A DNA stretch of 64,000 nt from NCBI RefSeq assembly GCF_003018255.1, contig NZ_CP027440.1; one strand, given 5' to 3'. The position numbers were made by a program, and so were the translations under genes. Below, one piece after another: positions 11,231-13,685 of the stretch. A model generated the notes under the pieces. The model did not search any database. It worked only from the letters and a program-made list of their open reading frames with translations, and was not told the DNA's origin. How positions within the stretch are numbered: the stretch's first letter is position 1; each line of letters starts with the position of its first letter. The DNA is from Escherichia coli (GTDB lineage: Bacteria; Pseudomonadota; Gammaproteobacteria; Enterobacterales; Enterobacteriaceae).

Positions 11231-11430
11231 TTACTTCTCCGCAGCCAATTGTCCGCGCAACGCCATTAAAAGGTACCCCAGGCGATTCTTGCCCTGACCA
11301 TTACCGCTATCTCCCCAGTAAGCATCATTTTGCGTATGCTCAACCAGTTTTGCGGACGCGGTTGCCAGCAAGAGTGTACGCAGTTCTGCATGTTGTTCGA
11401 ATTTAGCGCGAAGCGCTTTACGCATCATCC
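11231..11430 (-). pseudogene. ybiA: 5'-truncated remnant of ybiA (DUF1768 N-glycosidase family); only the C-terminal ~65 codons are recognisable
   Basis: ORF-track entry 11231..11536 (101 aa) ends with the family C-terminal motif (NDAYWGDSGNGQGKNRLGYLLMALRGQLAAEK), but only ~305 bp separate its stop from the dinG ATG, too short for the ~160-aa full-length protein (recalled); the ORF's N-terminal 35 codons read through the dinG promoter. Confidence 0.65.
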
Positions 11431-11500
11431 TGCTGGTTATTGCGAGCCGCTTTCCAGAAACAGAAAAACCATTACCCCTGAAAACCGAAAAATGCCACAA

Positions 11501-11520
11501 TATTGGCTGTTTATACAGTA
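11501..11520 (+). promoter_or_regulatory. LexA (SOS) box of the dinG promoter
   Basis: tattggctgtttatacagta, ~15 bp upstream of the dinG ATG; matches the LexA consensus TACTGTATATATATACAGTA in the 3' half with a TTG 5' half, as I recall for dinG. Confidence 0.7.
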
Positions 11521-11534
11521 TTTCAGGTTTTCTC

Positions 11535-13685
11535 ATGGCATTAACCGCCGCGCTTAAAGCGCAAATTGCCGCCTGGTATAAGGCGCTTCAGGAACAGATC
11601 CCCGACTTTATTCCCCGTGCGCCGCAGCGGCAGATGATTGCGGACGTCGCCAAAACGCTGGCCGGAGAAGAAGGGCGGCATCTGGCGATTGAAGCACCCA
11701 CCGGCGTTGGGAAAACGCTCTCCTATTTGATTCCCGGCATCGCCATTGCCCGCGAAGAGCAAAAAACGCTGGTGGTGAGTACCGCCAACGTGGCATTGCA
11801 GGATCAGATCTACAGTAAAGATTTGCCTCTGCTGAAAAAGATCATTCCCGATCTTAAATTCACTGCTGCTTTTGGGCGTGGGCGCTACGTTTGTCCGCGT
11901 AATCTGACAGCGCTTGCCAGTACTGAACCCACGCAACAGGATCTGCTGGCGTTTCTTGACGACGAGCTGACGCCGAACAATCAGGAAGAGCAAAAACGTT
12001 GTGCGAAGCTGAAGGGCGATCTCGACACTTATAAATGGGATGGTCTGCGCGATCATACGGATATCGCCATTGATGACGATCTCTGGCGTCGTTTAAGTAC
12101 CGACAAAGCCAGCTGCCTCAACCGCAACTGTTACTACTATCGTGAATGCCCGTTTTTTGTTGCTCGTCGGGAGATTCAGGAAGCGGAAGTGGTGGTGGCA
12201 AACCATGCGCTGGTGATGGCGGCGATGGAAAGCGAAGCCGTACTACCTGACCCGAAAAATCTGCTGCTGGTGCTGGACGAAGGTCATCACCTGCCAGATG
12301 TGGCGCGGGATGCGCTGGAGATGAGCGCCGAAATCACCGCGCCCTGGTATCGGCTACAGCTGGACTTGTTCACGAAACTGGTCGCTACCTGCATGGAGCA
12401 GTTTCGCCCGAAGACCATCCCACCGCTGGCGATCCCTGAACGTTTGAATGCGCATTGTGAAGAGCTGTATGAGCTTATCGCCTCGTTAAACAACATTCTC
12501 AATCTCTACATGCCTGCCGGGCAGGAGGCAGAGCACCGTTTTGCGATGGGCGAACTGCCTGATGAAGTGCTGGAGATCTGCCAGCGGCTGGCAAAACTCA
12601 CCGAGATGCTGCGTGGCCTGGCGGAGTTATTTCTTAACGATTTAAGTGAGAAAACCGGTAGCCATGACATTGTACGTCTGCATCGGTTGATTTTGCAGAT
12701 GAATCGCGCGTTGGGGATGTTCGAGGCGCAAAGCAAACTCTGGCGGCTGGCGTCTCTGGCGCAATCTTCCGGTGCGCCGGTGACTAAATGGGCGACGCGG
12801 GAAGAGCGCGAAGGGCAGCTGCATCTCTGGTTTCACTGTGTGGGTATTCGTGTCAGCGATCAGCTGGAAAGGCTGCTGTGGCGCAGTATTCCGCACATTA
12901 TTGTCACTTCCGCGACCTTACGTTCGCTGAACAGTTTTTCGCGTTTACAGGAGATGAGTGGTCTGAAAGAGAAAGCGGGCGACCGCTTTGTGGCGCTGGA
13001 TTCGCCCTTTAACCACTGCGAACAGGGCAAAATTGTTATTCCCCGGATGCGCTTTGAGCCTTCCATCGACAACGAAGAGCAGCACATTGCTGAAATGGCA
13101 GCCTTTTTCCGTGAGCAGGTGGAGAGCAAAAAACATCTCGGTATGTTGGTACTGTTTGCCAGCGGGCGTGCGATGCAGCGCTTTCTCGACTATGTGACGG
13201 ATTTACGCCTGATGTTGCTGGTGCAGGGCGATCAGCCACGTTATCGCTTAGTTGAACTGCACCGCAAACGCGTTGCCAACGGTGAGCGTAGCGTGCTGGT
13301 GGGCTTACAGTCCTTTGCCGAAGGTCTTGATCTGAAAGGCGATCTGCTCAGTCAGGTGCATATCCACAAGATCGCTTTTCCGCCCATCGACAGTCCGGTG
13401 GTGATCACCGAAGGTGAATGGCTGAAAAGCCTCAACCGCTATCCGTTTGAGGTGCAAAGCCTGCCGAGCGCTTCGTTTAACCTGATTCAGCAGGTTGGGC
13501 GACTGATTCGAAGCCACGGTTGCTGGGGGGAAGTGGTTATCTACGACAAACGCTTGCTGACCAAAAATTATGGCAAGCGACTACTGGATGCATTACCGGT
13601 ATTTCCGATAGAGCAACCGGAAGTCCCTGAAGGTATAGTTAAAAAGAAAGAAAAAACGAAATCCCCACGCCGTCGGCGGCGTTAA
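11535..13685 (+). CDS. dinG: ATP-dependent DNA helicase DinG (Fe-S, XPD-like superfamily 2)
   Basis: 716 aa; Walker A AIEAPTGVGKT, DEGHHL box, Cys cluster; SOS box upstream. Confidence 0.95.
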   Translation: MALTAALKAQIAAWYKALQEQIPDFIPRAPQRQMIADVAKTLAGEEGRHLAIEAPTGVGKTLSYLIPGIAIAREEQKTLVVSTANVALQDQIYSKDLPLLKKIIPDLKFTAAFGRGRYVCPRNLTALASTEPTQQDLLAFLDDELTPNNQEEQKRCAKLKGDLDTYKWDGLRDHTDIAIDDDLWRRLSTDKASCLNRNCYYYRECPFFVARREIQEAEVVVANHALVMAAMESEAVLPDPKNLLLVLDEGHHLPDVARDALEMSAEITAPWYRLQLDLFTKLVATCMEQFRPKTIPPLAIPERLNAHCEELYELIASLNNILNLYMPAGQEAEHRFAMGELPDEVLEICQRLAKLTEMLRGLAELFLNDLSEKTGSHDIVRLHRLILQMNRALGMFEAQSKLWRLASLAQSSGAPVTKWATREEREGQLHLWFHCVGIRVSDQLERLLWRSIPHIIVTSATLRSLNSFSRLQEMSGLKEKAGDRFVALDSPFNHCEQGKIVIPRMRFEPSIDNEEQHIAEMAAFFREQVESKKHLGMLVLFASGRAMQRFLDYVTDLRLMLLVQGDQPRYRLVELHRKRVANGERSVLVGLQSFAEGLDLKGDLLSQVHIHKIAFPPIDSPVVITEGEWLKSLNRYPFEVQSLPSASFNLIQQVGRLIRSHGCWGEVVIYDKRLLTKNYGKRLLDALPVFPIEQPEVPEGIVKKKEKTKSPRRRRR

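Follow-up and report, generated by a model that had tools for sequence, protein, structure and literature searches.

A 298-bp deletion reduces ybiA to a probable pseudogene beside an apparently intact dinG in Escherichia coli

Does the short minus-strand open reading frame (ORF) that faces dinG in this stretch of Escherichia coli DNA still represent a ybiA gene and, if it does not, how was the gene lost and how did the lost state reach this genome? The stretch, referred to below as the window, comprises 64,000 nucleotides of contig NZ_CP027440.1 (assembly GCF_003018255.1). A preliminary description, made from the sequence of the window, proposed that ybiA had been reduced to a 3' remnant abutting the dinG promoter. 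The alignments and searches reported here uphold that proposal: the element is very probably a unitary pseudogene of a NADAR-family N-glycosidase/guanine de-ADP-ribosylase, produced by one 298-bp deletion flanked by repeats, spread by recombination, and decaying neutrally.

The window was compared to the intact loci of strains 90-3040, M7424, K-12, and the divergent SCPM-O-B-8794 (locus L010), in which ybiA measures 483 bp (160 amino acids, aa) and the ybiA-dinG spacer 119 bp. Against all four intact alleles the window showed one clean gap of 298 bp. What is kept is the stop codon (11231-11233) and the last 64-65 codons, corresponding to YbiA residues 97-160, whose DNA is 90-93% identical to the 3' end of the intact alleles. 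Approximately 96 codons (1-96) have been lost together with 12-14 bp of leader, the ribosome-binding region included. The distance from the ybiA stop to the dinG start was found to be about 304 bp (~305 bp as first given), and alignment to the K-12-type interval, which set the endpoints of the loss between short direct repeats, revealed that the K-12 spacing is not short. The preliminary description had given a full-length YbiA of ~160 aa, which is correct, and an intact ybiA-dinG region of ~200 bp, which is too long. It had further estimated that 300-400 bp were missing, the catalytic N-terminal half among them; the loss of the N-terminal part, with the region of E48, stands, and the size lies at the low edge of that range.

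The remnant forms the distal part of a 101-aa minus-strand ORF, and the C-terminal end of this ORF reads NDAYWGDSGNGQGKNRLGYLLMALRGQLAAEK, exactly the DUF1768 motif that had been quoted as retained. The ATG of the ORF, on the complement of 11534-11536, shares 2 nt with the dinG ATG at 11535. Codons 1-35 of the ORF run antisense to the kept ybiA-dinG spacer, the LexA box included, in keeping with the earlier suspicion that the first ~35 codons are not native. The Pfam NADAR model (PF08719) covers ORF residues 33-97 only, equivalent to model positions 88-162 of 163, and a complete NADAR domain of ~160 residues is lacking. A full-length DUF1768 ORF elsewhere would have argued against loss of the gene, but a tblastn search with full-length YbiA against the whole 64-kb window matched residues 91-160 at 11443-11234 only, and a second copy was not found.

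The NADAR family is defined by a glutamate in the last beta-strand (PMC11125620, PMC11543638). In the P. nicotianae NADAR protein, ADP-ribose is bound by E43, K50, R79, W89, and R93 from one half of the protein and by E125, D130, and W133 from the other (PMC11543638). The remnant, which reads KLVEHTQNDAYWGD, retains the equivalents of E125, D130, and W133, and with them the family-defining glutamate and the D130/W133 pyrophosphate contacts; E128 is replaced by Q. The N-terminal active-site residues, E48 and K55 of E. coli YbiA in the numbering of our own alignment, are gone with residues 1-96; of the two glutamates with which NADAR enzymes bind ribose, one is matched in the alignment by the deleted E48 region. 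Because ADP-ribose binding needs residues of both protein halves, the remnant is not expected to be an enzyme. By removing the ribosome-binding region, ~96 codons, and the E48/K55 part of the active site, the deletion would leave no YbiA enzyme, and YbiA function is in all likelihood lost from the window.

Deletions between short direct repeats arise in E. coli by slipped-strand mispairing or by short-homology illegitimate recombination. In the intact alleles, an imperfect 8-bp direct repeat, ACGCAT(C/T)A (7/8 positions match), stands at either end of the segment missing from the window, with one copy (ACGCATCA) at codons 96-98 and the other (ACGCATTA) 6-12 bp upstream of the start codon. The two copies are 298 bp apart in loci L010, L002, and L005. 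In the intact L010 allele the left copy reads TTTACGCATCACCTG and the right copy AAAACGCATTATCCGGG, and the junction of the window reads TTTACGCATCATCCTGCTGG; the bases that follow the repeat copy in the window (TCCTG...) are those of the right-hand flank of the L010-type allele. The repeat is thus present at both borders, one copy is left at the junction, and no foreign DNA was found there. Four junction substitutions had appeared unexplained in alignments to A/B1-type intact alleles only, and were set aside when L010 was seen to carry them as ancestral differences. This arrangement points to replication slippage or short-homology illegitimate recombination between the 8-bp copies as the probable cause of the 298-bp loss. 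The 101-aa ORF would then be an accidental in-frame fusion of the remnant with former intergenic DNA.

The preliminary description had implied that the deletion is rare, which proved not to be so. Among 5,426 complete E. coli genomes, the 298-bp segment was present (intact type) in 3,429, and exactly the deletion junction of the window was found in 1,120. The type III effector gene espX2 occupied the slot in 542 genomes (O157:H7, IAI39, and O145:H28 are examples) and a paaA2-parE toxin-antitoxin pair in 325, so that these four slot states sum to 5,416. Overall, ybiA is absent or truncated in 37% of the complete genomes. An assembly or sequencing artefact can be dismissed, as the identical junction recurs in all 1,120 of these genomes, each finished independently, and in several assemblies of Escherichia albertii. 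A further and independent truncation of ybiA was observed in Escherichia sp. MOD1-EC7003 (locus L012, 7650-8160), where ybiA keeps the region of its start codon and its last ~50 codons, with the middle replaced by sequence resembling repetitive extragenic palindromic (REP) elements.

Carriers of the junction include the sequence type (ST) 131 strain JJ1886, and among the best matches to the window were APEC O78:H4 and APEC O2-211, which we take to be ST117/phylogroup G. RefSeq annotation by the Prokaryotic Genome Annotation Pipeline (PGAP) marks the feature as a pseudogene in JNE23-011 (100% identical to the window), JA0265, Ecol_542, JJ1886, an O6:K2:H1 strain, and SF-088; the label for the identical stretch in JNE23-011 is 'NADAR family protein, incomplete, missing N-terminus'. 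The deletion is already known, then, as a database-annotated pseudogene, and it is old, common, and not strain-specific. In the open-access literature searched on ybiA as a pseudogene or in B2, ST131, or E. albertii, no description of it came up. A protein search with the 65-aa remnant matched short or partial proteins only, and entries in the nr database, titled for example 'swarming motility protein ybiA' or 'DUF1768 domain-containing protein', correspond to the 65-aa and 101-aa products.

These entries raise the question of whether a truncated product, either a 65-aa C-terminal piece starting at an internal ATG-ATG or the 101-aa chimera, has been kept by selection as a functional mini-protein. 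We examined the changes among copies of the remnant haplotype and found four non-synonymous to one synonymous: G77S in the window, within the conserved GDGGNG; L57R in JA0265 and SF-088; and E51K, R53H, and the one synonymous change in E. albertii. At least four of five changes being non-synonymous has a probability of 0.005 under the constraint seen on intact ybiA (omega 0.07) and of 0.67 under neutrality, and the ratio therefore fits neutral decay. Omega was 0.29-0.34 between the remnant and intact alleles as compared to 0.07 between intact alleles, although these values rest on small numbers. On inspection, no Shine-Dalgarno-like sequence was seen before the ATG of the 101-aa ORF, and none well spaced before the internal ATG-ATG. 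Since the lost leader amounts to only 12-14 bp, the ybiA promoter presumably survives in the kept spacer, and transcription of the remnant is possible.

A mini-protein is in keeping with that likely position of the promoter, which makes transcription plausible, with the prediction of both products by gene callers, and with an ORF left uninterrupted in every E. coli and E. albertii copy examined. It nonetheless appears highly improbable. The substitution pattern, with a G to S change inside a conserved motif of the window, speaks against a constrained peptide, the fold and the active site have lost their N-terminal half, neither start has a well-spaced Shine-Dalgarno sequence, and PGAP calls a pseudogene. 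Moreover, the two species remain highly identical into the non-coding REP spacer as well, as expected of a shared tract of DNA but not of constraint on a peptide. The 101-aa chimeric ORF is most likely no gene, and the remnant would have decayed neutrally once ybiA was lost.

We then considered the other side of the junction. The window dinG encodes 716 aa, the length of the annotated DinG in all compared genomes, with dN to other E. coli of 0.001-0.002. Its LexA box, TATTGGCTGTTTATACAGTA, is identical to the K-12 dinG motif, AATATTGGCTGTTTATACAGTATTT, given in Table 4 of PMC3009722. As first described, dinG and its LexA box are, by this comparison, intact in the window. A search with the LexA consensus (TACTGTATATATATACAGTA, up to 3 mismatches) and one for CTG-N10-CAG did not pick up the dinG box, because the box is non-canonical. 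A scan of 10950-11650 for sigma-70 promoter and terminator consensus sequences found neither a promoter-like site nor a terminator and gave no position for the dinG or ybiA promoter; it must have been too strict, as the same sequence drives dinG in K-12.

The ~100-bp block upstream of dinG is nearly invariant across the four E. coli slot states, E. albertii, and the cryptic Escherichia clades; between the window and E. albertii 103 of 104 positions are identical, as compared to 92-94% in the flanking genes. The four slot states (loci L002, L006, L007, and L008 among them) share a right-hand boundary ~96-105 bp upstream of dinG. The deletion ends ~105 bp upstream of dinG and leaves the regulatory block and the LexA box untouched, and dinG regulation is expected to be unchanged by it. 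Across E. coli phylogroups, E. albertii, and two cryptic-clade genomes, identity at positions 11431-11534 (104 bp) was 99-100%, with neighbouring genes 6-8% different. The block is conserved far beyond the needs of a LexA box, and may contain overlapping divergent promoters or further regulator sites. In SF-088 (locus L020, about 3090-6070), a Mu-like prophage encoding Mor, gp16, and Gam lies ~54 bp upstream of the dinG ATG; this site, at about 11481 in the window, has the ybiA remnant on one side and the LexA box on the other, and the insertion parts dinG from some of the upstream block.

How the deleted allele came to be so widespread was addressed through E. albertii, whose type strain was found by a pattern scan of genome contigs with the dinG LexA motif. 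That scan brought up four Escherichia loci, one of them (L011) ending ~100 bp upstream of the LexA box and too short to type for ybiA. The identical junction and the 101-aa ORF were present in six E. albertii contigs, from the type strain and five more, including TW07627. Over the 197 bp of the remnant, the distance of phylogroup B2 strains and the window is 1.5-2.0% to E. albertii and 7.6-10.2% to intact E. coli alleles. The flanking genes rhlE, dinG, and ybiB of the same strains show the reverse, being 6-8% from E. albertii and 1-4% from other E. coli. Synonymous divergence of dinG between the two species is 0.23-0.26 per site, so that ~45-50 differences would be expected over the 197 bp of an equally old neutral remnant; 3-4 were observed, a number improbable (P ~4e-4) even against an overall divergence of 7%. 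The trough of divergence between JJ1886 and E. albertii spans ~11058-11641 and holds 6-7 mismatches.

The window itself shows a comparable trough against JJ1886, with 1 mismatch in 11135-11695, flanks 5-7% different, and a 50-kb average of 2.2% (binomial P ~5e-5). The left edge of this tract lies within the REP spacer at ~11135, the mismatches between the window and JJ1886 stopping at 11134. The low divergence of the remnant and the sharp trough inside divergent flanks argue that the deleted allele was moved by homologous recombination. On the simplest reading, a short tract with the deletion made one move between the species and a further one among lineages of E. coli. An old allele would have spread horizontally in this way as a tract of ~0.5-0.6 kb, and would now reside in B2-type E. 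coli (ST131, O6:K2:H1), ST117-like strains, the rare lineage of the window, and E. albertii.

Two explanations dispense with transfer between the species. In the first, identical deletions occurred independently in E. albertii and E. coli at a repeat acting as a slippage hotspot. Deletions between direct repeats can recur in principle, and every intact allele examined has the repeat. Yet the remnants share a whole haplotype, 1.5-2% apart and 7.6-10% from every intact allele with the flanking genes reversed, and the bases ATCCTG next to the junction are common to the E. coli and E. albertii remnants as well. In addition, the sampled part of the 5,426-genome survey contained no copy of the junction on a K-12-like 3' haplotype, and independent origins are very unlikely. 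In the second, the deletion is older than the divergence of E. coli from E. albertii and was kept in both by vertical descent as a trans-species polymorphism. The presence of the deletion in both species would be accounted for, but a neutral remnant should then differ at ~23-26% of its sites, like the synonymous sites of dinG, and only 1.5-2% do; together with the sharp boundaries of the tract against its flanks, this makes descent from a common ancestor barely credible.

Over 50 kb the identity of the window to JJ1886 is 97.7-98.1%; its identity to K-12 is 96.2-97.4%. That the window comes from a typical B2 strain was considered and rejected on that identity to JJ1886, and since only two genomes match the local haplotype: its 2-kb haplotype is common to JNE23-011 and JNE112863 alone among the complete genomes, both from Japan. 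The 3' part of rhlE (10400-11134) and the 5' part of dinG (11800-12400) are 5-7% from the B2 strains and closer to A/B1-type alleles. On these mismatch patterns, the rhlE-dinG locus of the window is a recombination mosaic. Elsewhere in the window, ~1.5 kb at about 35942-37458 (ybiU, a DUF1479 protein) is present in K-12 and absent from JJ1886, as seen from a jump in the blast alignment.

Transfer of a neutrally decaying tract remains our preferred account, and several points weigh against it or against parts of it. The recombinational spread and its direction we infer from sequence comparison. The 8-10% distance of the remnant from intact E. coli alleles fits an origin in E. albertii, but it fits equally an old pseudogene native to B2 and evolving at the neutral rate, and the two directions of transfer are both compatible with it. 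The sampled E. albertii copies have one shared DinG protein or lie within 1.3% of each other, and may represent a single clade. The window strain, ~2% from JJ1886 over 50 kb, is no typical B2 representative. Finally, the ORF of the remnant has stayed open in every copy sampled from both species, and its lack of translation is read from the nucleotides.

The features of the locus are collected in Table 1. Its gene order, rhlE, remnant, dinG, and ybiB, is the K-12 order, and the remnant is oriented as is the intact gene, which in the sequences examined is divergent from dinG and convergent with rhlE.

Table 1. Features of the rhlE-dinG locus, in window coordinates.
Feature	Position	Strand	Basis or remark
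rhlE	9635-10996	+	ORF list; upstream neighbour cecR
rhlE-ybiA intergenic region with REP-type repeats	10997-11230		queries with this stretch: median 25-27 matches per E. coli genome
ybiA 3' remnant, probable NADAR/YbiA-family pseudogene fragment	11231-11428	-	alignments to intact ybiA, Pfam, PGAP
Deletion junction, the lone surviving 8-bp repeat copy ACGCATCA	11420-11427		comparison with intact alleles
Kept ybiA-dinG spacer (dinG regulatory block), ~105-107 of 119 bp	11428-11534		alignments
dinG LexA (SOS) box TATTGGCTGTTTATACAGTA	11501-11520	+	identical to K-12 box
Chimeric 101-aa ORF	11231-11536	-	ORF list; ATG start
dinG, 716 aa, intact	11535-13685	+	ORF list; followed by ybiB
Haplotype tract carrying the deletion, ~560 bp	11135-11695		mismatch maps against JJ1886

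The frequency of the deletion might also reflect selection, if the loss of YbiA, or removal of the divergent 5' region of ybiA, altered dinG or SOS expression beneficially and the allele spread for that reason. The slot has lost ybiA by at least four routes (the deletion, espX2, paaA2-parE, and the truncation with REP sequence in MOD1-EC7003), the gene is missing from 37% of complete genomes, and the deleted allele crossed lineage and species boundaries. However, every state of the slot keeps the same ~100-bp block upstream of dinG, which indicates that dinG control was conserved and not altered, and a dispensable gene would be equally expected to be lost repeatedly. We regard such an adaptive effect as quite unlikely. 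A broader proposal can be advanced only as speculation, and we regard it as rather unlikely: that a ~0.6-kb tract with a dead ybiA crossed the boundary between E. albertii and E. coli, then passed among E. coli lineages (B2, ST117-like, and the rare lineage of the window), and that this history, taken with the three other independent losses in the slot, reflects positive selection in some niches, and not mere tolerance, for the loss of YbiA, a guanine de-ADP-ribosylase/riboflavin-intermediate N-glycosidase encoded back to back with SOS-controlled dinG.

K-12-type YbiA has been stated to be 'consistently found' beside dinG (PMC11125620). The absence of ybiA from ~37% of complete E. coli genomes, pandemic ST131 included, qualifies that statement, and phenotypes ascribed to K-12 YbiA, namely swarming, riboflavin damage control, and reversal of guanine ADP-ribosylation, cannot be assumed in lineages that lack it. 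As a matter of annotation hygiene, the 65-aa and 101-aa database entries ('swarming motility protein ybiA' and the like) should not be taken as functional YbiA. Shared by E. coli and E. albertii, the allele offers a small and probable example of a short recombination tract taking a loss-of-function allele across a species boundary. To the existing pseudogene annotation the present analysis adds a probable deletion mechanism with its endpoints, a four-state polymorphism of the slot around an invariant dinG block, and evidence for exchange between species.

In comparison with K-12 ybiA, which encodes an N-glycosidase (PF08719; nuclear magnetic resonance structure 2B3W), the remnant of the window occupies the same rhlE-dinG slot in the same orientation, and its 64-65 codons retain 86% protein identity with the LVEH...NDAYWGD motif. 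Unlike K-12 YbiA, it lacks residues 1-96 and the ribosome-binding site, carries E128Q and G137S, and cannot form the YbiA fold. The PGAP pseudogenes P423_RS04075 of ST131 strain JJ1886 and ACXDC2_RS07035 of JNE23-011 are the same feature, with an identical junction and a remnant 99.5-100% identical; the window differs from the B2 version in its flanks, which diverge by 5-7% directly outside 11135-11695. The espX2 and paaA2-parE states are likewise without ybiA and have the same ~100-bp dinG upstream block, but there the gene was replaced entirely by foreign genes with no remnant, whereas the window has an internal deletion with the 3' end kept. Compared to known deletions between short repeats, the layout is the same, a loss bracketed by repeats with one copy left behind, and nothing about it is unusual; the repeat is imperfect.

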